Positions 47,936 to 60,896 of a stretch of DNA of 64,000 bases are shown piece after piece. The notes beneath the pieces were generated by a model. The model worked only from the letters and a program-made list of their open reading frames with translations. It was not told the origin of the DNA and did no database searches. Where the stretch lies: NCBI RefSeq assembly GCF_041886205.1, contig NZ_CP169029.1; one strand, written 5' to 3'. Both the position numbers and the translations under genes were made by a program. The stretch comes from Escherichia coli (lineage in GTDB: Bacteria; Pseudomonadota; Gammaproteobacteria; Enterobacterales; Enterobacteriaceae). Numbering within the stretch: the stretch's first letter is position 1; every line of letters starts with the position of its first letter.

Positions 47936-47989
47936 TGAACCGCCCCGGGAATCCTGGAGACTAAACTTCCTGAGAAAGAGGTAAACAGG

Positions 47990-48316
47990 ATGACTAAAAA
48001 TACTCGTTTTTCCCCCGAAGTCCGTCAACGGGCAGTCCGTATGGTTCTGGAAAGTCAGAGCGAATATGACTCACAATGGGCGACAATTTGTTCCATTGCT
48101 CCAAAGATTGGCTGTACGCCGGAGACTCTGCGTGTCTGGGTTCGCCAGCATGAGCGGGATACCGGGGGCGGTGATGGAGGGCTCACCACCGCTGAACGTC
48201 AGCGTCTGAAAGAGCTGGAACGTGAAAATCGTGAACTGCGCCGCAGTAACGATATCCTTCGCCAGGCTTCCGCTTATTTTGCGAAGGCGGAGTTCGACCG
48301 CCTCTGGAAAAAATGA
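47990..48316 (+). CDS. IS629 transposase OrfA (HTH)
   Basis: 108-aa [22 protein letters not shown]...; ends in an A-run slippery site. Confidence 0.85.
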
Positions 48317-49203
48317 TGCCACTGCTGGATAAGCTGCGTGAGCAGTACGGGGTCGGACCGCTATGCAGCGAACTGCATATTGCCCCGTCAACGTATTACC
48401 ACTGTCAGCAACAGCGACATCATCCGGATAAACGCAGTGCCCGTGCGCAGCGCGATGACTGGCTGAAGAAAGAGATACAGCGCGTATACGATGAAAATCA
48501 CAAGGTATACGGTGTGCGTAAAGTCTGGCGTCAGTTGTTACGGGAAGGTATCAGAGTGGCCAGATGCACTGTGGCACGTCTCATGGCGGTTATGGGACTT
48601 GCCGGTGTTCTCCGGGGTAAAAAGGTCCGTACGACCATCAGCCGGAAAGCCGTTGCCGCAGGCGACCGCGTAAACCGTCAGTTCGTGGCAGAACGACCTG
48701 ACCAGCTGTGGGTGGCTGATTTTACTTACGTCAGCACATGGCGGGGCTTCGTCTATGTGGCGTTCATCATTGATGTGTTTGCCGGATACATCGTGGGGTG
48801 GCGGGTCTCATCGTCCATGGAAACGACATTCGTGCTGGATGCACTGGAGCAGGCGTTATGGGCCCGTCGACCGTCCGGCACGGTCCATCACAGTGATAAA
48901 GGTTCTCAGTATGTATCGCTGGCCTACACACAGCGGCTTAAGGAAGCCGGATTACTGGCATCAACAGGAAGTACAGGCGACTCGTATGACAACGCGATGG
49001 CGGAGAGCATCAATGGTCTTTACAAAGCGGAGGTAATACACCGTAAGAGCTGGAAAAACCGTGCAGAAGTGGAACTGGCCACACTCACGTGGGTGGACTG
49101 GTATAACAATCGACGATTGCTGGAAAGGCTGGGCCATACTCCTCCGGCAGAAGCAGAAAAAGCTTATTATGCTTCCATCGGAAACGATGATCTGGCAGCC
49201 TGA
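48313..49203 (+). CDS. IS629 transposase OrfB (DDE integrase domain), -1 frame relative to OrfA
   Basis: 296-aa ORF with DDE motif region; overlaps orfA in the -1 frame as in IS3-family elements. Confidence 0.85.
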
Positions 49204-49245
49204 GTTCACAGATAAAACACTCTCCAGGAAACCCGGGGCGGTTCA

Positions 49246-49760
49246 TCCAGTGTTTTCCATGTCTGCTTGTATTCGCGATGAATGGCAGCAATGACCGGGT
49301 TGATTTTTCCTGTTGAATTTTCAGTGTGCTGTTGATTGGCTCTGGCACGGGCGAGATCAACAACAGACGTGTATTTTCCGGCTTCCTTGCGTTCACCTTC
49401 GCGACGTTTTTTCCAGATGCGCATCTCTGCCTGAATTTCGGGCCATTTGGCACCAGGCTTACATTTATGCTTAACCCACCCGATGGCATGCAGCTTAAGC
49501 TCCGGATACATAGCGTTAACTTCTGGCATTTTCATCAACGCTTCAACGATATGGCCGTCGAATGTTGCCATGTCTTCCTGCAACAATTCCTGTGCGCTAA
49601 TCACCATATCAACAGTGATGTTTTCACATGTGTCGAACTTAACCATGACAGCGTTCTGTACTTCAGGGGCTAGGTTGTCAAAAGTGACGTTCATCGGATC
49701 GGATTCAGTCTCGACCGGGACAAAGGAAGCAGACGCCTCATCCCAGCGGTTTTCCTGCAT
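49246..49760 (-). pseudogene. 5' portion of the IS629-interrupted phage exonuclease gene
   Basis: ORF beginning MQENRWDEASASF... runs into the IS629 right end; its last ~12 called codons are IS-derived. Confidence 0.6.
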
Positions 49761-50017
49761 ATATTCAGCATCCCAGGAATCGAGGGCAGGGCGGGGTATA
49801 CCGGGTTTATCCTCGCAAACAAGAAATTTATAAGCGCAGTCCTGAGCAGCCGGATAATGTTCCAGGAATTGCCAGTGAAATTTTGCGCGGGCGCGACGTT
49901 CATCACCGGCTTCAATGGCAGTGGCTACAGTGAGACGAACTTCGCCGTGCGCTTTCGTGTTGTGTGCCTGCTTTTAACCACGTCAGGCGAGGTGGTATCC
50001 TTAAAATCACCACAGTT

Positions 50018-50593
50018 TTAAGGATTCATTAAGCAATGTCGCAACCACCAATAAATCCGCTTAAGAACATGAAAATTGATTACTGGTATAAAGCGCTTAC
50101 AGTTGTTGGCGCTGCGTTGTTTGTCTTTAATGGAACGTCTTTTTTTGACAGATATCCCGTTGTTCCATTGGATTTTTTGTCCTCCGGCATCTTTTTTATT
50201 GGTTTGGGGGAGTGGATTAATCACCCTCTCAAAGTGAGATTTATTGGTCCTGGAGTTTGGACTCGTGGATATAATCGTTCTTAGTGCGCACTCGGTATCA
50301 TCTTCGACATACTTGGTTGTTTCCTGATTGTTACAGGAGTCGTCAAGTTCTTCTGATGTAAAACCGCAAATGGGGCACGTAACGGGAATTTTGAAAAGCG
50401 TTTCTCCGGGTTCCAGAACAAAATTTTCTGCGGTCTGATTTTGCTTCTCATATTTGTGCTCCGCGTCATTGTGAGAGCACATTCTTATTCTGAGTGCCTG
50501 TTTAAACTCACTGAAGCTGAGAGCTTCTTCGCCTTCGGCAAGACCTTCGAAGTATTCTTCGTAAGCCTTTTCCATGATTGTGTCGAAATCCAT
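50018..50593 (-). CDS. hypothetical prophage early-region protein with CxxC zinc-ribbon-like motif; 3' extent uncertain
   Basis: ATG at 50593 preceded by RBS AGGTGAG; N-terminal ~100 aa protein-like (…VTCPICGFTSEE…), distal part low-complexity and overlapping a plus-strand ORF. Confidence 0.4.
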   Translation of the reverse strand: MDFDTIMEKAYEEYFEGLAEGEEALSFSEFKQALRIRMCSHNDAEHKYEKQNQTAENFVLEPGETLFKIPVTCPICGFTSEELDDSCNNQETTKYVEDDTECALRTIISTSPNSRTNKSHFERVINPLPQTNKKDAGGQKIQWNNGISVKKRRSIKDKQRSANNCKRFIPVINFHVLKRIYWWLRHCLMNP

Positions 50594-50594
50594 A

Positions 50595-50831
50595 TCACTC
50601 ACCTGAGTTTCTTTCCAGCCAGCGACGGGCACCATTTTCGGTTTTAAACGTTTTGCTTTTGGTATACGTCATCGCGGTGAACGTACCGTCCTGGTTGGGG
50701 AACACGCCACATACCGGAGATTCGCTGTTGCCAAGATCGATAGTATCCATGCTGACCTCATTTCCCCTTAACGCCGGGGTAGCGGAACAAAAACCTGCTG
50801 CATAGTTATTAAAGTTGAACCCTGCCGTCAT
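50595..50831 (-). CDS. hypothetical small prophage protein
   Basis: 78-aa ORF whose stop lies 1 nt before the next ATG (translationally coupled arrangement). Confidence 0.4.
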   Translation of the reverse strand: MTAGFNFNNYAAGFCSATPALRGNEVSMDTIDLGNSESPVCGVFPNQDGTFTAMTYTKSKTFKTENGARRWLERNSGE

Positions 50832-51047
50832 GTTCTTACGCCTCGGGCTGGCTACTTAACCCCTGACCACTGCCTGGTAACTCGAAGTATTGCCCTGCAT
50901 TCTGTGGGGCGGGGTGGGTGGCAGGCATATAATGTACTTTGCGTTCATTGTTGTAAAGTACTTTTAGTACATTTTGTGTGTAAAAAAATGAGATGGGATA
51001 AAGTGAAGCACAAACCCGGAGGAAGGCGCTACCGGATTTATGCTGGT

Positions 51048-51467
51048 TTAAGAGGCTTTTTGTTTTTTCTTTCGTGCTAACTCTTCGTAAATTGCATTGT
51101 ACTTCTGTTTTTTCTCTTCAAGAGTTTTTAAAAGTTCATCTGTCTCACTGTCAGGGAGCTCGTCCAGAAGGTCAATGATGATTTTTTGTCTTGGATTTAA
51201 CTCCTGATAGAAACGTACCTGTCCACTTTCTTCTGTATCCTCTCCCAAAAGATAGGTTGGTGTTGTTCCTATTAGTGTTGCTAATTCCCTTAATTTCTCC
51301 CGGCGAGGAATTGTTTCGCCATTAAACCATTTGCTAACCGCTTTTGGTGTTAATTTCATTCGACGGGCAATTTCTGCCTGCCTTCCATGTTGTTCATAAC
51401 CAGCGTTTTCACAGGCTAGCGCAAGCCTACTGGCGAACTCTTTACGCGCTTTATCTTCATGAACCAT
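51048..51467 (-). CDS. prophage repressor, XRE-family HTH (DicA/cI-like)
   Basis: 139-aa ORF with HTH (…MKLTPKAVSKWFNGETIP…); divergent from a Cro-like gene. Confidence 0.75.
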   Translation of the reverse strand: MVHEDKARKEFASRLALACENAGYEQHGRQAEIARRMKLTPKAVSKWFNGETIPRREKLRELATLIGTTPTYLLGEDTEESGQVRFYQELNPRQKIIIDLLDELPDSETDELLKTLEEKKQKYNAIYEELARKKKQKAS

Positions 51468-51546
51468 AAGTTCAATGATATTCGCTCTTGAATGTACTGT
51501 CAGTTCTGTTATAGCATGTACTCAAAGTTCACACTGTGAGGGTGAT

Positions 51547-51801
51547 ATGAACCAGAAAACACTTGAAGATGTAATCAAAACTGTTCGCGTTGCTGTTGTG
51601 GCCGACGTTTGTGGTGTCAGCCAAAGAGCAATCTATAAATGGATGGATAACGGAAAATTGCCTCGCACAGAATATACCGGCGAAACAAATTACGCTGAAA
51701 AAATCGCTCTTGCATCAAACGGATTATTTTCTGCCGATGCAATTTTAACTATTGGCAGGAATAAAACTACTACGAAAAAGCTGATGGGAGTTGATTCATG
51801 A
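51547..51801 (+). CDS. Cro/YdaS-like HTH protein
   Basis: ATG at 51547 with RBS GAGGGTGA; HTH (…VADVCGVSQRAIYKWMDNGKLP…); ATGA overlap with next gene. Confidence 0.65.
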   Translation: MNQKTLEDVIKTVRVAVVADVCGVSQRAIYKWMDNGKLPRTEYTGETNYAEKIALASNGLFSADAILTIGRNKTTTKKLMGVDS

Positions 51802-52223
51802 AAATCAAGCATGAACACATCCGCATGGCGATGAATGCCTGGGCGCATCCGGACGGCGAAAAAGTACCGGCTGCGAAAATTACCAAAGCGTATTTCGAGC
51901 TGGGAATGACGTTCCCGGAACTGTATGACGACAGCCATCCGGAAGCCCTGGCTCGCAATACTCAGAAAATTTTCCGCTGGGTGGAGAAAGACACCCCTGA
52001 TGCGGTTAAAAAAATTCAGGCGTTGTTACCAGCTATCGAAAAAGCAATGCCACCTCTGCTGGTGGCCCGAATGCGCAGTCATAGCTCAGCCTATTTTCGG
52101 GAACTAGTGGAGACGCGGGAACGACTGGTGAGAGACGCTGATGATTTTGTCGCAGTGGCGATCGCTGGTTTCAACCAGATGAATCGTGGTGGCCCTGCAG
52201 GAAATATTGTGGTTGTGCATTGA
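51798..52223 (+). CDS. YdaT-like prophage protein
   Basis: 141-aa ORF beginning MKIKHEHI..., same length class and context as Rac YdaT (recalled). Confidence 0.6.
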   Translation: MKIKHEHIRMAMNAWAHPDGEKVPAAKITKAYFELGMTFPELYDDSHPEALARNTQKIFRWVEKDTPDAVKKIQALLPAIEKAMPPLLVARMRSHSSAYFRELVETRERLVRDADDFVAVAIAGFNQMNRGGPAGNIVVVH

Positions 52224-52294
52224 CTCGCAATATTCATACCGGATCACTTCCGGCAATTTGTGAGTAAAAAGATTCGGTATCAAAAGAGGTGAGT

Positions 52295-53365
52295 ATGGCT
52301 AACGCCTGGCTCAGATTATGGCATGACATGCCAAATGACCCTAAGTGGCGAACAATTGCCAGGGTGTCAGGGCAGCCAATTGCAACAGTGATGGCAGTGT
52401 ATATCCACCTCTTGGTGAGCGCGTCACGAAATGTCACGCGAGGTCACATTGATGTCACGACAGAAGATTTGGCAAGTGCGCTCGACGTGACAGAAGAGGT
52501 AATTGATTCAATTTTGCAGACGATGCAGGGGCGGGTACTTGATGGTGATTTAATCACTGGATGGGAAAAACGCCAGGTGCTTAAAGAGGACAACGGCAAT
52601 ATTTCGCAAACCGCAAAATCTCCTGCAGAGCGCAAGAGGGCGCAGCGAGAGAGGGAAAGAAAGCGGGAACAAAATGGCGATTGTCACGGCGCGTCACGAA
52701 ATGTCACGCACATGTCACGACGAGTCACGACAGATAAAGATACAGATAAAGATACAGATCAAGAAGATCAAAACACTATGGTCCATGGCGTAAAAAACGC
52801 CACGAACCAGGCAGGGGATGTTCAGACCGTCAATCTTGGTCAGCCAGCAGGCACGACACCGGAAGCCGATTCAGCGTATGCGCTGAAAGCCGATTCGGGC
52901 GCTGTGCAGCAGGTGATGACCGCAAGGCCGGAGCAATCACACCAACTGCAGCAGCCCGAAGCCGATTCCGCCATTCAGCGGGAAGCCGATCGGGTAGTCC
53001 CGGAAAACACCGGGCAGTCTGTGGGACGAGTGGATTATCCGGATGTGTTCGAACAGGTCTGGCGGGAGTACCCGTTGCGTGCCGGAGCAAACCCGAAGAA
53101 ATCCGCTTTCAGTGCCTGGAAGGCCAGATTACGCGAGGGGGTGCCACCAGAGGCCATGCTGGATGGCGTGAGGCGTTACGCAAGATACTTGGCGGCTACC
53201 GGGAAAACGGGAACGGAATTTGTTCAGCGAGCGACGACGTTTTTTGGACCGGACCGGAATTTTGAGAACTCCTGGTTGCTCCCGGTAAGCGGCACGAACA
53301 ACCAGCGTTGTGTGAATCATATTTCTGAACCGGATAACGAAATTCCGCCGGGCTTCAGGGGGTAA
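52295..53365 (+). CDS. putative phage replication initiation protein (O/YdaU-like)
   Basis: Position after the cro-like gene; ATG at 52295 with RBS; internal iteron-like DNA repeats. Confidence 0.55.
   Translation: MANAWLRLWHDMPNDPKWRTIARVSGQPIATVMAVYIHLLVSASRNVTRGHIDVTTEDLASALDVTEEVIDSILQTMQGRVLDGDLITGWEKRQVLKEDNGNISQTAKSPAERKRAQRERERKREQNGDCHGASRNVTHMSRRVTTDKDTDKDTDQEDQNTMVHGVKNATNQAGDVQTVNLGQPAGTTPEADSAYALKADSGAVQQVMTARPEQSHQLQQPEADSAIQREADRVVPENTGQSVGRVDYPDVFEQVWREYPLRAGANPKKSAFSAWKARLREGVPPEAMLDGVRRYARYLAATGKTGTEFVQRATTFFGPDRNFENSWLLPVSGTNNQRCVNHISEPDNEIPPGFRG
52421..52760 (+). repeat. iteron-like direct repeats (putative prophage origin) inside the replication gene
   Basis: Exact 19-bp repeat GCGTCACGAAATGTCACGC at 52421-52439 and 52690-52708; about nine GTCAC motifs in two clusters; tandem ACAGATAAAGAT repeat at 52731-52760. 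Confidence 0.65.
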
Positions 53366-53405
53366 GTGTTAATTTCTGGTCATGAGGTAATTTTCAGGAG
53401 GGCTT

Positions 53406-53828
53406 GTGGCAAAAGTTTTTACACAAGAAGAGCGGGAAAAAATTAAAGGGCAGGTTGTTGAACTCGTACGCCAGAGTGGGCGCGAGACGTTAAGACAACT
53501 GGAAACTAAAACTGGGGCAACAAAATATATGATGAACGTTCTGGCCAGAGAGCTGGTTGCCAGTGGCGATGTATACAACTCTGGTTACGGGTTATTCCCG
53601 TCTGAACAGGCGCGTAAGGACTGGCAAAATGCCCGTAAAAAGCTCTCAAGGGCAAAGCTGAAGAAACCATCTGCGGTTGATCCGGACCTTATCTGGTCAT
53701 TACCTGATGGAGAAATACGTCGTTACGACAGGCGTCATAATATGATTTGTACTGAGTGTCGTAAAAGCGAAGTTATGCAGCGCATATTGTCGTTTTATCA
53801 GGGGGATGTTCGGTATTTATTGAAGTGA
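53406..53828 (+). CDS. hypothetical prophage protein
   Basis: 140-aa ORF with GTG start and RBS AGGAGGG 6 nt upstream. Confidence 0.45.
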   Translation: MAKVFTQEEREKIKGQVVELVRQSGRETLRQLETKTGATKYMMNVLARELVASGDVYNSGYGLFPSEQARKDWQNARKKLSRAKLKKPSAVDPDLIWSLPDGEIRRYDRRHNMICTECRKSEVMQRILSFYQGDVRYLLK

Positions 53829-54223
53829 CGAGATTAAAGTGCATTAGTTCAGATGCAAATTGACATTTTGTGGCACAGGGTAGAGCTAGCGTGGTTGTCC
53901 GCTTTGTGCCAACAGCGGACATTATGGAAGGTCAGAGTTAAAGATTAAAATGGGATGCTGTGTGTTTTCTCCAGGTTTTGCTCTATACCTTTCGGGATAC
54001 TCCACCGACAGAATACGAAAATCAACATTATCAACGGCTCGAAGTGTCTAGATTATCCATGGCAATTCATGGGAAATCCCATCCAACGGCTTATGCTTCA
54101 TGTTGCTTTTTGAGATCGCTTCTAGCATAGCTCCACTCAATAATGTTGTCGGGTCGTTGCTGATCGAAAAGGATACGGGATTCAATACCATTACCTAAAA
54201 AGCTGGTACCGGAACTCGGGCTG

Positions 54224-55228
54224 GTGGTCGTTAAGCCGGGCCGTGAATCCATGCCGGTATTCCACAATACCCGGGTACTGGTGGAGCCGGAACCGAAAAG
54301 CATGCGTAATCTGCCGTCCGGGGTCGTTCCTGCCGTTCGCCAGCCGCTGGTGGAAGACAAAACATTGCTGCCGTTTTTCAGTAACGCACGGGTAATTCGT
54401 GCTGCTGGTGGTGCTGGTGCATTGTCTGACTGGCTGTTGCGCCATATTAAATCCTGCCAGTGGCCACACGGCGATTATCATCACAGCGAAACCGTTATTC
54501 ACCGATATGGTACCGGCGCAATGGTGTTGTGCTGGCACTGCGACAACCAGCTGCGTGACCAGACATCCGAATCACTCGAGCAACTTGCTCATCAAAACCT
54601 GTCAGCATGGATGATTGACGTCATCGGTCACGCAATAAGCGGTACGCAGGAGCGTGAATTATCTCTGGCTGAATTATCCTGGTGGGCGGTCCGCAATCAG
54701 CTGGCGGACGCGCTACCGGAAGCGGTATTACGTCGCTCGCTGGGATTACCAGCGGAAAAAATCTGCTCGGTGTACCGCGAAAGCGACATCGTACCGGGAG
54801 AGCAGACCGCCACCAGCATATTGAAACAGCGCACAAAAAATCTTGCACCGTTGCCTCACGCCCACCAGCAACAAAACCCATCACAGGAAAAGACGGTGGT
54901 AAGCATCACCGTTGATCCAGAGTCTCCGGAATCTTTCATGAAGCTGCCTAAACGTCACCGGTGGGTTAAGGAGAAATACACACGCTGGGTTAAGACACAG
55001 CCGTGTGCTTGCTGCGGTATGCCAGCCGACGATCCGCATCATCTGATTGGTCACGGGCAGGGCGGAATGGGAACCAAAGCACATGATCTCTTTGTTTTGC
55101 CTTTGTGCAGAAAGCATCACGACGAGTTGCATACGGATACCGTGGCATTTGAAGAGAAGTATGGCTCCCAACTGGAGCTGATTTTTCGATTTATCGATCG
55201 CGCGCTGGCAATTGGTGTGCTGGCCTAA
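54224..55228 (+). CDS. DUF968-family prophage protein with C-terminal Cys/His (HNH-like) motif
   Basis: C-terminus …[43 protein letters not shown]…; start uncertain (GTG 54224 or ATG 54251). Confidence 0.55.
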
Positions 55229-55245
55229 TTTTGTGGAGTAAGTTG

Positions 55246-55623
55246 ATGCGTGATATTCAGATGGTTCTTGAGCGTTGGGGGGCATGGGCGGCTAATAATC
55301 ATGAAGATGTGACCTGGTCGTCCATTGCCGCCGGTTTTAAGGGATTAATTCCTTCAAAAGTAAGATCTCGTCCGCAATGCTGTGACGATGACGCGATGAT
55401 CATTTGTGAATGTATGGCTCGCCTGAAAAAAAACAACAGCGATTTACATGATTTATTGGTGGACTATTATGTCGGCGGCATGACTTTTATGGCGCTTGCA
55501 CATAAGCATGGGCGATCTGATTGTTGGGTTGGCAGGATGCTCCAGAAAGCTGAGGGCGTAGTGGAGGGCATGCTGATGGTGTTGGATCTCCGATTGGAGA
55601 TGGATGCTGATTGTTCGAAATAA
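55246..55623 (+). CDS. putative late-gene antiterminator (small Q-like family)
   Basis: 125-aa ORF with RBS GGAG, located just upstream of a terminator and the lysis region; family assignment from memory. Confidence 0.45.
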
Positions 55624-55721
55624 TTAAAGGAAAAGTTGCTGTCTGATTTTCATTAGTCTAACATTTTAAATGTTGGAATCGCAACGTAGTTATTATCATA
55701 TAACAGCTTGTTTCCTGATTT

Positions 55722-55750
55722 AGCCAGCCTCCCCAAAGGCTGGTTTTTTT
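55722..55750 (+). terminator. intrinsic terminator about 100 bp downstream of the Q-like gene (candidate tR')
   Basis: Hairpin GCCAGCC-TCCCCAAA-GGCTGG followed by a T7 run. Confidence 0.6.
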
Positions 55751-55778
55751 CTAATAAGTATCATTTCGGGTGGGGATT

Positions 55779-56303
55779 TTATTGTTTAACCCATAATAGT
55801 TCATTGACATTGAATCCCAACTTTTGAGCGGTACGCACATAGTCTGCTTTTACATTATCTGGAATAGTTTGGGTCCTTGCCAGAATCCATAGGTATTCTC
55901 TGTTCGGACCACTGACAAGAGCATACTTATACTCATCATCCAGTTTGATTACATTATAGCCACCATAGAAGGGGCCAAAAAACGAAACTTTCAACGCTGC
56001 AGTTTTAGTATCTCCAGTAAAGTATGCTTTACCTTCGCTCTCGCTCCATTTGTTTTTCGTTGGATCGTATCCACGGTTAAGTACGCGAATCCCTCCGTCG
56101 TTCCGTTTTTCATAAGTAGCGCTGACCTGTTCCAGACCACGTTCGAACCAGTTCTCGAGGCGAGCTATTTCATACCATTTTCCGAGGTAGCGGTTGGCGT
56201 CAAAATTTGTAATCGGCTGCACACCTTTAGGTGGTGTCGGGGCCTTACATGCTATAAGAGTGAAAGAGAGTGCAATGCCAGTCAACACAGGCCATAACTT
56301 CAT
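55779..56303 (-). CDS. outer-membrane lipocalin lipoprotein (Blc-like)
   Basis: 174-aa ORF with lipobox (LIAC) and lipocalin motifs (…NFDANRYLGKWYEIARL…, …KVSFFGPFYGGYNVI…). Confidence 0.75.
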   Translation of the reverse strand: MKLWPVLTGIALSFTLIACKAPTPPKGVQPITNFDANRYLGKWYEIARLENWFERGLEQVSATYEKRNDGGIRVLNRGYDPTKNKWSESEGKAYFTGDTKTAALKVSFFGPFYGGYNVIKLDDEYKYALVSGPNREYLWILARTQTIPDNVKADYVRTAQKLGFNVNELLWVKQ

Positions 56304-56495
56304 AATAAATCCTGTACTTTTGATAGTTGAGAGTAAGTATGAAAGATAGATGAGTACGACCGATCACTTAAAGAACTTTCCTACTATATTAGGAATAGTC
56401 AATAACAGAAAAATTGTCAGTGATGAAGCCAGAAAGGCAATTTAGTCCGTGCACTACAAAGTTTATGTGTTAATGAATTAGTCAAGGGGGAGGAA

Positions 56496-57455
56496 ATGAT
56501 AAAAAAACCTGTGATTGGGATCAGCGGTTGTTTGGGCGGTTCTGCTGTTCGTTTTGATGGTGGTCACAAAAGAGATGACTTTTTAATGGACAAATTAGTG
56601 GAATGGGTAACATTCAGACCAGTATGTCCGGAAATGGCTATAGGGCTGCCAGTTCCGCGTCCTGCTCTACGACTTGTGCGCTCGAAGCAAGGAAATATAC
56701 GGATGTGTTTCAGCCACGACCAGAATGAGGATGTGACAGAGAGAATGACAGAGTTTAGTCGTTCTTATATGGACAAATTAAAGGATGTATCGGGGTTTGT
56801 GGTTTGTGCTAAATCTCCCAGCTGTGGCATGGAGCGCGTGCGTGTCTATGATGAAAATGGTAATCGAGGTCGTAAAGATGGAGTGGGACTATTTACGAGC
56901 ACTTTGATGGAAAAGTTTTCCTGGCTACCGGTTGAAGAGGATGGGCGATTACATGATCCAGTGCTTCGTGAGAATTTTATTGAAAGAGTTTTTGCTTTGC
57001 ATGAGCTCAATCACCTTTACAAGGAGAAATTATCAAGAAGAGAGTTATTAGCTTTTCATAGTCGTTATAAGCTTCAGTTGTTGGCGCATAGCCAGGCAGG
57101 CTATAAAGATATGGGACCATTTGTGGCTGCAATACACGAGTGGGCGGACCTTGAATCATACTTTGAGGTGTATCGTGATAATCTGATGGCGATTCTCAGA
57201 AAACCAGCATCACGTAAAAATCACACGAATGTGCTGATGCATATACAGGGGTATTTTAGTAATTACTTAAGTACACGCCAGCGTAAAGAGTTGAGCGAGG
57301 TTATACTTAACTATCGCTTTGGCACATTGCCTCTTCTTGCGCCGTTGACTCTGCTGAAGCATTATCTGGGTGAGTATCCTAATGATTACTTGCTTACACA
57401 GAATTACTTCGATCCCTATCCGGAAGAACTGGCTCTAAGACTGATGGTGAATTAA
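56496..57455 (+). CDS. DUF523/DUF1722 fusion protein (YbgA-like C-terminal half)
   Basis: 319-aa ORF with conserved Cys residues in the N-terminal half; family call from memory. Confidence 0.5.
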   Translation: MIKKPVIGISGCLGGSAVRFDGGHKRDDFLMDKLVEWVTFRPVCPEMAIGLPVPRPALRLVRSKQGNIRMCFSHDQNEDVTERMTEFSRSYMDKLKDVSGFVVCAKSPSCGMERVRVYDENGNRGRKDGVGLFTSTLMEKFSWLPVEEDGRLHDPVLRENFIERVFALHELNHLYKEKLSRRELLAFHSRYKLQLLAHSQAGYKDMGPFVAAIHEWADLESYFEVYRDNLMAILRKPASRKNHTNVLMHIQGYFSNYLSTRQRKELSEVILNYRFGTLPLLAPLTLLKHYLGEYPNDYLLTQNYFDPYPEELALRLMVN

Positions 57456-57861
57456 CTGTATGCGATATCATCTGAAAGTGATGAGTTCCTGTATGCAGGA
57501 TATTTACAATCGTAAAAACTACGCTATGATGCTCATAGTGTCAGTTTTTATAAAAATCCTGTTCACGCTAAAGAAAACATTGAGATGCAATTTAATGTTG
57601 GTAAACATACCAACCCCAAAAGATTTTATTCAATCTGTTTTTATATGAAGATATTTCAAGTGAATATAAAGAGCATATAATATTATTATTGCACGCAGCT
57701 ATTATAATATAACAGATTAGTTTAATGATTTGTTTTTTGTGAGTTAAACACATGGTTTTATAGTTGTGATGCAATGAGATTTTCCTTATTGTTGAACTGG
57801 CGAATATTGATTTTCCACCTATACTTACCTGGTGTAACCCCAATGATATCAGGTGGATAAT

Positions 57862-58575
57862 ATGTCATACATATGTTCTATCATTTTGGTGTTGAACTCG
57901 TTTGGTGTCCGAATTGGTAAAGAAGATATTTTGTTTAAAAAAGGAAATGCTGTCCTCATTGAATACAATTTAAAAGATCTTTTTTCGTCAAATACAGATC
58001 ATCTAATGATCGTAGATGTTGAGGAGAAAACAGTTAATGATTTCTTTAAAAACTACACACTCTCACCTTTTTCTGTAAGAAGGTTTTATCCGTCATACTT
58101 GATAGTAGAATGTGAAGATTTTTCATTGTTAAAGAACTTGGTTGCATGCTTGAATTGTGATAGCAAAACCGTGGATGTAGTTAGAAATCAAATATCACTT
58201 GCATGTCTTGCTGTCTTATCTTCAGAGAAAATAGTGCAAAGTTTTTTGTTCGGAAGTCTTAATAGCTTAGGTTGTAAAGTTAAGGCTATTATTCACTCGG
58301 ATATCTCAGCGTCATGGAGACTTTGTGATATATCTTCAAGATTATATATGAGCGAGAGTTTGTTAAAAAGAAAATTAAAAGACGAAGGATTATCGTTTAG
58401 TAAATTAATTCTTGAAGAACGAATGATGATGGCGCAAAGATTATTGATCTACAGTAACCATACTGTCGGCAAGGTGGCGGGAATATGCGGGTATGACAAT
58501 GCATCATATTTTGTAAGTGTTTTTAGAGGATATTTTGGTGTGCCTCCGCACCAATATTTATCAAGATTTTCTTAG
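57862..58575 (+). CDS. AraC-family transcriptional regulator
   Basis: C-terminal AraC-type HTH (…LLIYSNHTVGKVAGICGYDNASYFVSVFRGYFGVPPHQY…); RBS AGGTGG before ATG at 57862; gene and flanks visibly AT-rich. Confidence 0.75.
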   Translation: MSYICSIILVLNSFGVRIGKEDILFKKGNAVLIEYNLKDLFSSNTDHLMIVDVEEKTVNDFFKNYTLSPFSVRRFYPSYLIVECEDFSLLKNLVACLNCDSKTVDVVRNQISLACLAVLSSEKIVQSFLFGSLNSLGCKVKAIIHSDISASWRLCDISSRLYMSESLLKRKLKDEGLSFSKLILEERMMMAQRLLIYSNHTVGKVAGICGYDNASYFVSVFRGYFGVPPHQYLSRFS

Positions 58576-58765
58576 AAGATATGATGTGATGGCATTTTAT
58601 AAAGTTATTTTTTGAAGTGTAAGATTATACGATATTTTTAGCTACGCCAGAATAATTGCTGGCGTTTTTCTTTTTGAATAGATGTTCGGGCCTTACGCTA
58701 ATGTAACTTCTTTCCTTCTTCGAACCAAACCGTGTACACCATCCGTTATCTGCGGAGGTGAGGCT

Positions 58766-58981
58766 ATGAAATCCATGGATAAGTTAACAACGGGCATCGC
58801 CTACAGCACCTCTGCAGGCAGTGCTGGCTACTGGTTTTTACAGTTGCTCGATAAAGTCACGCCCTCACAGTGGGCGGCAATAGGTGTATTGGGTAGTCTG
58901 GTATTTGGCATGCTGACGTATCTGACAAATCTTTATTTCAAGATTAAAGAAGACAGGCGTAAGGCTGCGAGAGGAGAGTAA
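58766..58981 (+). CDS. phage holin, class II (S21-like pinholin)
   Basis: 71-aa product [26 protein letters not shown]... with two TM segments; RBS GGAGGTGA; first gene of lysis cassette. Confidence 0.85.
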
Positions 58982-58985
58982 TCCA

Positions 58986-59297
58986 ATGACTCAAGACTAT
59001 GAACTGGTTGTGAAAGGAGTCCGTAATTTTGAGAATAAAGTTACGGTAACTGTAGCCTTACAGGACAAAGAACGCTTTGACGGTGAAATTTTTGGCCTGG
59101 ATGTCGCCATGGACCGTGTTGAAGGAGCTGCGCTGGAGTTTTATGAGGCAGCAGCCAGAATGAGCGTCCGGCAAGTCTTCCTGGAAGTAGCAGAAAAATT
59201 GTCAGAAAAAGTTGAGTCTTATCTGCAGCATCAGTACTCCTTTAAGATTGAAAATCCTGACAATAAGCACGAGCGTCCTCATCATAAATATCTATGA
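58986..59297 (+). CDS. YdfR-like hypothetical protein located between holin and endolysin
   Basis: 103-aa ORF; same position and size as ydfR in K-12 Qin (recalled). Confidence 0.55.
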   Translation: MTQDYELVVKGVRNFENKVTVTVALQDKERFDGEIFGLDVAMDRVEGAALEFYEAAARMSVRQVFLEVAEKLSEKVESYLQHQYSFKIENPDNKHERPHHKYL

Positions 59298-59823
59298 ACA
59301 CAAAAATCAGATACGGCCTGTCGGCTGCCGTTCTGGCGCTGATTGGTGCTGGCGCATCTGCTCCTCAGATACTTGACCAGTTTCTGGACGAAAAAGAAGG
59401 TAACCACACAATGGCATACCGCGATGGTTCTGGCATATGGACCATCTGTCGGGGTGCCACAGTGGTGGATGGAAAAAACGTTTTTCCCAATATGAAACTG
59501 TCGAAGGAAAAATGCGACCAGGTCAACGCCATTGAGCGTGATAAGGCGCTGGCATGGGTGGAGCGCAATATAAAAGTTCCACTGACCGAGCCACAGAAAG
59601 CCGGTATCGCGTCATTCTGTCCCTATAACATTGGCCCTGGTAAGTGTTTTCCGTCGACGTTTTATAAGCGGCTTAATGCCGGTGATCGTAAAGGCGCATG
59701 CGAGGCGATTCGCTGGTGGATAAAGGACGGTGGACGTGATTGCCGCATTCGTTCAAATAATTGTTACGGTCAGGTTATTCGTCGTGACCAGGAGAGTGCA
59801 TTAACCTGCTGGGGGATAGAACA

Positions 59824-59827
<4 letters not shown>
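59294..59827 (+). CDS. phage endolysin, GH24 lysozyme with N-terminal signal-anchor-release (SAR) segment
   Basis: 177-aa ORF; hydrophobic Gly/Ala-rich N-terminus (…LSAAVLALIGAGASA…) followed by lysozyme domain. Confidence 0.85.
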
Positions 59828-60320
<493 letters not shown>

Positions 60321-60683
60321 GGTAATATTAAATCGGAACATTTACATCGCGGAATGTAAAATTTAAATAAAAAGGACTCTTCCATGAGCCAAAATTCCTG
60401 AAATCTTAAGGGTAAGATAAAAGGTCTTAATCAGAATGACACGTTATTATTAATAAATAAAGCTATTCTTTCATTGCTGTGTTTTTCTTTACAAAAGTAA
60501 TCCTTGCTATGGGTGGTTAATCATGCGTTAATGGTGTTCTGGTTTGTTACAAATTTATCTGAAGCAGTCATTGTTATAATTTTATTATTTGTACCTCTTG
60601 AGATTTCCTTGTTGGTTTTTCTCTCTGATATTTTTTTTCGGACCATTCTGCCCAAGGGCTAATTTCTTCAAAAGGTAATAATT

Positions 60684-60896
60684 ATGTCTAACAAAATGAC
60701 TGGTTTAGTGAAATGGTTTAACCCTGAAAAAGGTTTTGGTTTCATCACGCCGAAAGATGGCAGCAAAGATGTGTTTGTCCATTTCTCAGCAATTCAGAGC
60801 AACGATTTCAAAACATTAACTGAGAATCAGGAAGTTGAATTTGGTATTGAGAACGGACCTAAAGGTCCTGCCGCTGTTCATGTAGTGGCGCTTTGA
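60684..60896 (+). CDS. cspI: cold-shock protein (CspA family), prophage-encoded
   Basis: 70-aa [41 protein letters not shown]...; preceded by a long AT-rich leader. Confidence 0.8.

Follow-up and report, generated by a model that had tools for sequence, protein, structure and literature searches.

The lysis cassette and its prophage

Between the genes for a pinholin and an endolysin, the window (i.e. the whole stretch of 64,000 nucleotides of Escherichia coli DNA analysed here) carries an open reading frame of 103 codons starting with ATG. The features of this locus are listed below by position.

Within 55138-58665, minus strand: lipocalin-family cargo gene
56496-57455: YbgA-family cargo gene
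57853-58575: AraC-type regulator cargo gene
58644-58665: terminator-like hairpin after the AraC-type gene (terminator scan)
58766-58981, plus strand: S21-type pinholin/antiholin gene (essD/essQ-like), 71 aa, dual start M1/M4 (MKSM); PF04971, E 2.3e-34
58972-58976, plus strand: Shine-Dalgarno (SD) sequence AGGAG of ydfR, 9 nt 5' of its ATG, within the last holin codons
58986-59297, plus strand: ydfR, 103 codons
58986-59201, plus strand: conserved core of ydfR, codons 1-72, the DUF1327 domain proper (alignments, AF2, dN/dS)
59202-59283, plus strand: tail of ydfR, codons 73-99, common only to the 174-aa and 206-aa variants
59284-59297, plus strand: deletion junction, last codons HKYL-stop, corresponding to the untranslated endolysin leader of relatives
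59294-59827, plus strand: rrrQ-type SAR endolysin gene (R), 177 aa, start without SD; lysozyme PF00959, E 6e-24
59824-60320, plus strand: Rz (i-spanin, rzpQ), split by a frameshift (alignment with strain B7A; position)
60016-60270, plus strand: embedded Rz1 (o-spanin, rzoQ), lipobox LTSC (ORF; K-12 rzoQ at the homologous position)
60684-60896: cold-shock gene cspI

The upstream 71-aa gene also matches the PHROG holin families and is annotated essD in strains B7A and wlxctx60; compared by eye, its product is about 96% identical to K-12 EssD (two sequences). The endolysin presents an N-terminal Gly/Ala-rich, SAR-like segment and an E-x8-D-x5-T motif, both read from the sequence. The holin stop (TAA, 58979-58981) lies 4 nt before the ydfR start, and at the other end the ydfR stop (TGA, 59295-59297) overlaps the endolysin start (ATG, 59294-59296) in an ATGA at 59294-59297. 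A sequence-only reading of this locus had reported a 103-aa gene lying between holin and endolysin, with its stop overlapping the endolysin start; the ORF is exactly as described, and its neighbours belong to PF04971 and PF00959. The protein had also been called acidic, and it is mildly so (pI 5.3; 19 D/E vs. 14 K/R). It is hydrophilic (GRAVY -0.57) and matched no membrane or export family in Pfam, and is therefore presumably cytoplasmic. The G+C content of the gene is 43%, compared with 47-50% in its neighbours. No promoter or terminator flanking ydfR was found beyond shuffle expectation in our scans, and we read the gene as part of the late operon.

The protein is YdfR, a member of DUF1327 (PF07041), with 171.9 bits (E 3.3e-51) over profile positions 1-93 of 93, for a gathering score of 25 bits. 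It also matches PHROGs 34145, 2735, 2091, 406 and 1085, all labelled 'unknown function'. No family was found in NCBIfam, and across Pfam, PHROGs and NCBIfam the protein had no match beyond DUF1327 and these unlabelled families, in particular to any known antiholin family. Public databases already contain an identical protein, named 'DUF1327 domain-containing protein', and many E. coli chromosomes match the 1.8-kb cassette at 99.9% identity and have its genes annotated as essD/essQ, ydfR, rrrQ and rzpQ. The Pfam match, the dN/dS of the core and this database identity together indicate that ydfR is a real gene and not a chance ORF. K-12 YdfR (b1555, UniProt P76160, Qin cryptic prophage) has the same length and is identical at 100 of 103 residues (97%), the three substitutions being D37G, R59M and A92D. 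K-12 Qin also presents the order essQ-ydfR-rrrQ-rzpQ and the ATGA overlap with rrrQ. It differs from the window upstream of the holin, where K-12 has cspB/cspF and the window has lipocalin, YbgA-family and AraC-type morons, and in Rz, which is frameshifted in the window. The novelty of the gene is thus low: it is already known and annotated, it is abundant, and lists of E. coli genes of unknown function have long included it. To call the gene itself unknown would be an overstatement.

Six database proteins (P0029, P0052, P0057, P0069, P0100 and P0115) contain both PF04971 and DUF1327. As ydfR and the holin gene are in different frames, true fusions are improbable, and the ORFs were probably frameshifted or mis-called.

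The prophage lies at the Qin locus, flanked by rspB and ydfJ. What the element retains in the closest complete genome is int, xis, Q, the lysis genes, the csp genes and remnants of tail-fibre genes; no head or terminase gene was found in it. The window prophage is therefore a cryptic Qin-type remnant and not an inducible lysogen. Between the Q antiterminator gene and the holin gene (55138-58665), it carries the three cargo genes listed above, which are absent from K-12 Qin. About 7.2 kb of early-region DNA (47936-55137) is missing from the otherwise near-identical strain wlxctx60, whose exonuclease and DUF968 genes are truncated; the element in the window is thus less decayed than in that strain. 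Just 3' of the cassette, cspI is followed by the small cold-shock genes ymcF, ynfR and ynfN. An Rfam search of 58400-60800 gave a single match, the cspA thermoregulator (90 bits, E 6e-23), from 60538-60800 onwards, in the 5' UTR of cspI. Within rzpQ, a run of seven A residues (59903-59909) replaces the eight found elsewhere, and this 1-nt deletion splits the ORF. Of the roughly 2100 complete E. coli genomes that contain this segment, only that of strain wlxctx60 has the same variant, and rzpQ is annotated in pieces there. Either a real inactivating mutation or a sequencing error in the homopolymer could account for it. The embedded rzoQ is apparently intact.

Distribution of ydfR and origin of its 103-codon form

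From 5426 complete E. coli genomes, 3646 (two thirds) contain DNA of the conserved core, in up to six copies, and 1774 contain the exact junction of ydfR tail, ATGA and rrrQ. Where the gene is found in E. coli-type cassettes (eight annotated phages and 65 viral contigs), it starts 3-4 nt past the holin stop and precedes an endolysin of the 177-aa type. The arrangement of the window is found identically in phages Tritos, HannyBb and PhiR42_1, and is therefore compatible with a working cassette and viable phages; variants of it occur in mEp460, 2H10, BP-4795, Evi, Chlobot, phage 86 and many Stx1a and Stx2c phages.

Most cassettes of this type nevertheless lack the gene. Among phage records, whose counts are redundant and carry no phylogenetic correction, 438 contain an S21-type holin, 459 an RrrQ-type endolysin and 100 a DUF1327 protein, so that only 100 of the 438 records with the holin carry DUF1327. 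In VT2-Sakai (933W type), the holin belongs to the same S21-type family (about 80% identical) and the endolysin to the same 177-aa family (89% identical, the N-termini of the VT2-Sakai and window proteins differing as MSRKL… vs. MNTKI…). This phage is without DUF1327, and R fills the slot: it starts 4 nt past the holin stop and uses the GGAG embedded in the holin gene. The gene is thus polymorphic in presence and absence between otherwise homologous flanks. In the S21-R21 cassettes of DLP12, phage 434 and phage 21, the endolysin is of the 165-aa R21 type and overlaps the holin stop (TAATG), and the DNA homology between the window and DLP12 stops exactly at the holin stop. The DUF1327 gene is dispensable for a working cassette, since VT2-Sakai, DLP12 and phage 434 join the holin gene directly to the endolysin gene. 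The description of ydfR as extra relative to homologous cassettes is therefore accurate. The sequence-only reading had also taken absence from most homologous cassettes as something that would speak against a part in lysis, and such absence is largely what the records present.

We then examined how the 103-codon form arose. Window DNA is colinear up to 59283 with two viral loci encoding longer proteins, L101 (174-aa DUF1327) and L103 (206-aa DUF1327). Against both, blastn places the breakpoints at 59283/59288. About 580 nt are missing in the window compared with L101 and about 360 nt compared with L103, and homology returns within the conserved leader that precedes R in relatives (...ATAAATATC(C/T)ATG). 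The HKYL codons and the ATGA overlap are read from DNA that is untranslated leader in these relatives (…CCTGATAAATATCC|ATG). Judging from these alignments, the 103-aa form is a deletion derivative of the 174-206-aa forms that has lost the variable C-terminal extension, and the same deletion fused ydfR to the endolysin leader and created the ATGA overlap. It would also have taken a small convergent partner gene, as the removed segment is the place of that gene in relatives. Since the ATGA lies in a former untranslated leader, what had been called 'translational coupling' to the endolysin is a by-product of the deletion.

The ribosome-binding sites of the cassette were compared by their predicted duplexes with the 3' end of 16S rRNA. 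The AGGAG of ydfR reaches -9.5 kcal/mol and the homologous GGGGAGAG of VT2-Sakai R -8.5 kcal/mol, while the R start of the window has a dG of +1.2. Of the 83 R starts examined, those in cassettes carrying DUF1327 all have a dG of at least 0, whereas in cassettes without DUF1327 the site embedded in the holin gene serves the endolysin. On this comparison, the inserted ydfR has taken over the SD sequence of the endolysin, whose own start is left without one. In the window, the rrrQ start probably depends on the ATGA overlap, and termination-reinitiation there would be the obvious route for ribosomes to rrrQ. Of the coupling claimed earlier, the tight embedding of ydfR in the cassette is thus seen directly (4-nt gap and ATGA), and reinitiation at rrrQ is likely at most by this reasoning. 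Relatives have 37-880 nt between the DUF1327 stop and R, which follows the same SD-less leader; coupling is therefore not a requirement of the family.

Endolysin genes behind DUF1327 are preceded by a conserved AU-rich leader of about 45 nt, TAACATATCCAGGGATT..GATAAATCCTGATAAATATCC, which is seen in the window at 59250-59293 and upstream of R in loci L004-L009, L012 and L025-L100. In relatives, this leader separates R from the start of the convergent partner, and it may therefore hold the promoter of that gene or a translational element.

The conserved core and its relatives outside lysis cassettes

DUF1327 proteins vary in length from 72 aa (Evi) to at least 287 aa, and the alignments show that only residues 1-72 are conserved, the proteins diverging completely beyond. 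The core of about 72 aa has the pattern M..YEL.VK … EG..L.YYE.EA… and a beta-beta-beta-alpha fold. The structure prediction that had been proposed was run with AF2 and gave a confident core of three strands (5-14, 18-27 and 34-43) and one long helix (50-71), with a pLDDT of 76-90 over residues 1-70 and below 50 for residues 77-103; the tail is predicted to be disordered or weakly helical. The same fold was recovered for the Evi homologue, which is 57% identical. For divergent pairs, dN/dS of the core is mostly 0.2-0.45, while in the tail of about 26 codons dN and dS are roughly equal, with very few sites entering the comparison. An acidic core is seen throughout the family (median net charge -4). 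No protein with a sequence match at E <= 1 was found in the PDB, and Foldseek against PDB and BFVD returned nothing below E 0.01 and no convincing structural relative; the beta3-alpha folds considered for the core were those of the dsRBD (with its N-terminal helix), HicB-like and RNase H-like proteins.

The family is small: the core profile found only 94 matches among 1.84 billion representative proteins. The distant ones are stand-alone proteins of 72-76 aa, in Yersinia mollaretii, Enterobacter soli, Enterobacter kobei and Citrobacter. Their genes lie between gpM-like (PF05939) and gpL-like (PF05100) tail genes, directly after a gpI-like gene, or after or upstream of an R21-type endolysin gene. 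With members at several late-operon junctions, DUF1327 is a mobile passenger of late operons rather than part of the holin-endolysin machinery.

In addition, every stand-alone 72-76-aa homologue examined has a small convergent ORF 5-36 nt past its stop. The same convergent pairing was found in the slot between holin and endolysin (S-R) of Evi, Chlobot, phage 86 and L101. The following partner genes can be given as examples.

L007, 3317-3631, minus strand: convergent partner gene
L008, 2744-3040, minus strand: convergent partner gene
L009, 2811-3083, minus strand: convergent partner gene
L015, 696-1001, minus strand: convergent partner gene
L016, 1879-2160, minus strand: convergent partner gene
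L101, 3039-3320, minus strand: convergent partner gene

The partners belong to phrog_25324, phrog_10490, phrog_2411 and phrog_1853 or are unclassified, all without an assigned function. Those of phrog_25324 are found in the lysis slot (Evi) as well as in tail slots (L015 and L017), and the pair as a whole occurs at the S-R, gpM-gpL, after-gpI and after-Rz junctions. A reciprocal search with two partner profiles retrieved 33 viral loci (L104-L136), 30 of which have a convergent DUF1327 gene whose stop is 5-36 nt from that of the partner. In Evi, the two stops have a minus-strand terminator hairpin exactly between them; except for this hairpin, scans around the partner genes gave no promoter or terminator above shuffle expectation. 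Two of the partner families (A8 and A9) show no detectable homology to each other (hhalign probability 0.3%). AF2 on an improvised single chain (DUF1327, linker, partner; 7-row alignment) gave a pTM of 0.38 and no confident contact. PADLOC returned only chance-level matches, and no toxin-antitoxin or defence family was matched. The ydfR copy of the window has no convergent partner.

In the other three loci of the reciprocal search (L112-L114; e.g. L114 3311-3637, minus strand), a phrog_25324-type partner lies between gpL-like and gpM-like genes and faces a beta-rich ORF of about 94-108 aa that the DUF1327 profile does not detect. This ORF may be a very divergent or analogous counterpart of DUF1327.

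We found no description of a convergent DUF1327 two-gene module in the literature searched. A speculative reading, and in our view a rather unlikely one, is that DUF1327 is the late-strand half of such a mobile module in enterobacterial lambdoid phages. The module may consist of a DUF1327 gene followed by a convergent, exchangeable gene for a small helical protein, placed at several late-operon junctions. An RNase E-binding DUF1327 protein made only in lytic growth would then silence or process a partner expressed in the lysogen, or reprogramme RNA decay, and the ydfR of Qin would have survived as an orphan, taken into use as a bridge by which translation reaches the endolysin.

Possible functions of YdfR

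The experimental lead on YdfR comes from a genomic two-hybrid (BACTH) screen, which recovered its residues 1-72 (Göpel et al., RNA Biology 2026; PMC13232886), i.e. a fragment that coincides exactly with the conserved core. In the same study, full-length YdfR interacted with Rne(1-597), Rne(1-598) co-eluted with Strep-YdfR from cells, and the eluates held DNase-resistant nucleic acid, reported as RNA. Overexpression of YdfR changed few transcripts and left growth unaffected, and ydfR was silent under standard conditions (PMC13232886). This link to RNase E rests on one paper with an overproduced, tagged protein, and the contact could be bridged by RNA. We considered YdfR as a basic RNA-binding protein and rejected this as the primary reading, the core being acidic family-wide.

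The account that we prefer, whose chances of being right and of being wrong we regard as evenly balanced, takes ydfR as an optional passenger that sits behind an S21-type pinholin and ahead of an RrrQ-type SAR endolysin, where it captured the SD sequence. In cis, translation of ydfR would deliver ribosomes to rrrQ by termination-reinitiation, and ydfR would in this way set the output of endolysin although its product is no lysis protein itself. The protein, which is small, acidic and cytoplasmic and is made together with the late genes, would act in trans on the RNA-decay machinery of the host, most likely as a protein ligand or competitor of the RNA-binding surface of RNase E. Direct binding of RNA by a basic surface would be less likely; because the core is acidic across the family, the ligand or competitor mode is favoured over a classical RNA-binding protein. 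YdfR would not be needed for lysis. Against this account, ydfR follows the pinholin gene strictly, in 65 of 65 E. coli-type loci with both flanks seen, a position that would also fit a pinholin-related role. Moreover, the Keio deletion was leaky in an envelope screen, overexpression altered few transcripts and had no effect on growth, and coupling is not required in the family.

A part in the timing or regulation of lysis, on which the sequence-only reading had speculated, is not supported by our results: the gene is optional, it has homologues in tail clusters, its product matches no membrane or export family of Pfam, and published work, in which overexpression had no effect on growth, points to RNase E and RNA. 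As a rival explanation, YdfR may be a cytoplasmic regulator of lysis timing, functionally comparable to the T4 antiholin RIII. Its target would be the C-terminal tail of the S21 pinholin, which is basic and cytoplasmic, and binding of the acidic YdfR there would delay or sharpen triggering and the release of the SAR endolysin. All E. coli-type loci have the gene 3-4 nt past an S21-type holin and ahead of the same 177-aa R type, and this constant place is consistent with such a regulator, as are co-translation with the lysis genes and the complementary charges of holin (pI 9.6) and YdfR (pI 5.3). The Keio ydfR deletion was also positive, i.e. leaky, in the CPRG envelope screen of Paradis-Bleau 2014 (only in its supplementary hit lists), but read-through from the kan cassette into the SAR endolysin gene rrrQ would explain this phenotype equally well. 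Moreover, about three quarters of the phage records with the holin, VT2-Sakai included, lack the gene, homologues lie in tail-gene clusters far from any holin, no similarity to known antiholin families was found in Pfam, PHROGs or NCBIfam, and the dual start of S21 already encodes its own antiholin. We consider a lysis regulator improbable. To the same degree, we doubt that YdfR is simply without a function of its own here, the ORF being kept as the only efficient ribosome route to the SD-less rrrQ or hitch-hiking in a decaying prophage. The overlap of an R lacking an SD with the ydfR stop, a tail without sign of constraint, a cryptic prophage with a frameshifted Rz and the lack of ydfR expression under standard conditions (PMC13232886) would all fit. 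On the other hand, purifying selection acts on the core in different lineages, a homologue of 57% identity is predicted to have the same fold, and the family persists as stand-alone genes for 72-76 aa where coupling is not needed.

It is also possible, although we give this little chance, that DUF1327 is the late-operon half of a mobile two-gene module and controls or neutralises its convergent partner, or the transcript of that partner, during lytic growth. The copy in the window would then be an orphan without its partner, and may have no remaining function in trans. The regularity of the pairing argues for this (a convergent ORF at all stand-alone homologues examined, and reciprocally at 30 of 33 loci), as do its recurrence in the S-R slot of Evi, Chlobot, phage 86 and L101, the presence of phrog_25324 in both lysis and tail slots, the hairpin between the stops in Evi and the loss of the partner segment by deletion in the window. 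However, the partners fall into at least four PHROG families without detectable mutual homology, which looks more like a cargo slot, the fused-chain model gave no confident packing (pTM 0.38, shallow alignment), and neither PADLOC nor toxin-antitoxin families were matched. The partner-less 103-aa form is, in addition, highly conserved, abundant (1774 genomes) and present in viable phages.

The finding of ydfR at this locus itself changes little. The gene is, however, among the most widespread uncharacterised phage genes of E. coli, including Stx1- and Stx2c-converting phages, and the only experimental lead on it is binding to the catalytic half of RNase E. A phage factor with this target would give temperate phages a new point of contact with host RNA decay. 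As the endolysin is displaced from its ribosome-binding site, cassettes with and without DUF1327 may differ in the ratio of endolysin to holin, which is relevant to the kinetics of lysis and toxin release in Stx phages. The remaining interest thus lies in the function of ydfR and its contact with RNase E, in this displacement and in the convergent two-gene module of relatives.

Compared with known systems, the cassette follows the same dual-start pinholin logic as the paradigm of phage 21, DLP12 and phage 434. The inserted gene resembles the 'morons' of lambdoid phages (e.g. bor and lom), a concept of Hendrix and co-workers, in its polymorphic presence and absence, its slightly lower G+C content and its multiple insertion sites. 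Unlike a moron, ydfR in the window has no promoter or terminator of its own, and the convergent partner of relatives is the sole part that resembles an autonomous moron-like unit. T4 RIII, a small soluble cytoplasmic phage antiholin, is the model for the lysis-regulator explanation. By analogy, YdfR is a small soluble cytoplasmic phage protein that could act on the cytoplasmic domain of a holin; unlike for RIII, DUF1327 homologues also occur outside lysis cassettes, and no sequence or family similarity between the two was detected. T4 antiholins are mentioned in PMC8385771.

No sequence or fold similarity was found between YdfR and known RNase E-binding proteins (RapZ-like or Srd/Dip-type). 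Phage ligands of RNase E are T4 Srd, phiKZ Dip and T7 gp0.7, with which YdfR can be compared as a small acidic protein encoded by a phage. The host protein RapZ is a ligand of the N-terminal catalytic half of RNase E (PMC13232886), and it is to this same half that YdfR is reported to bind.
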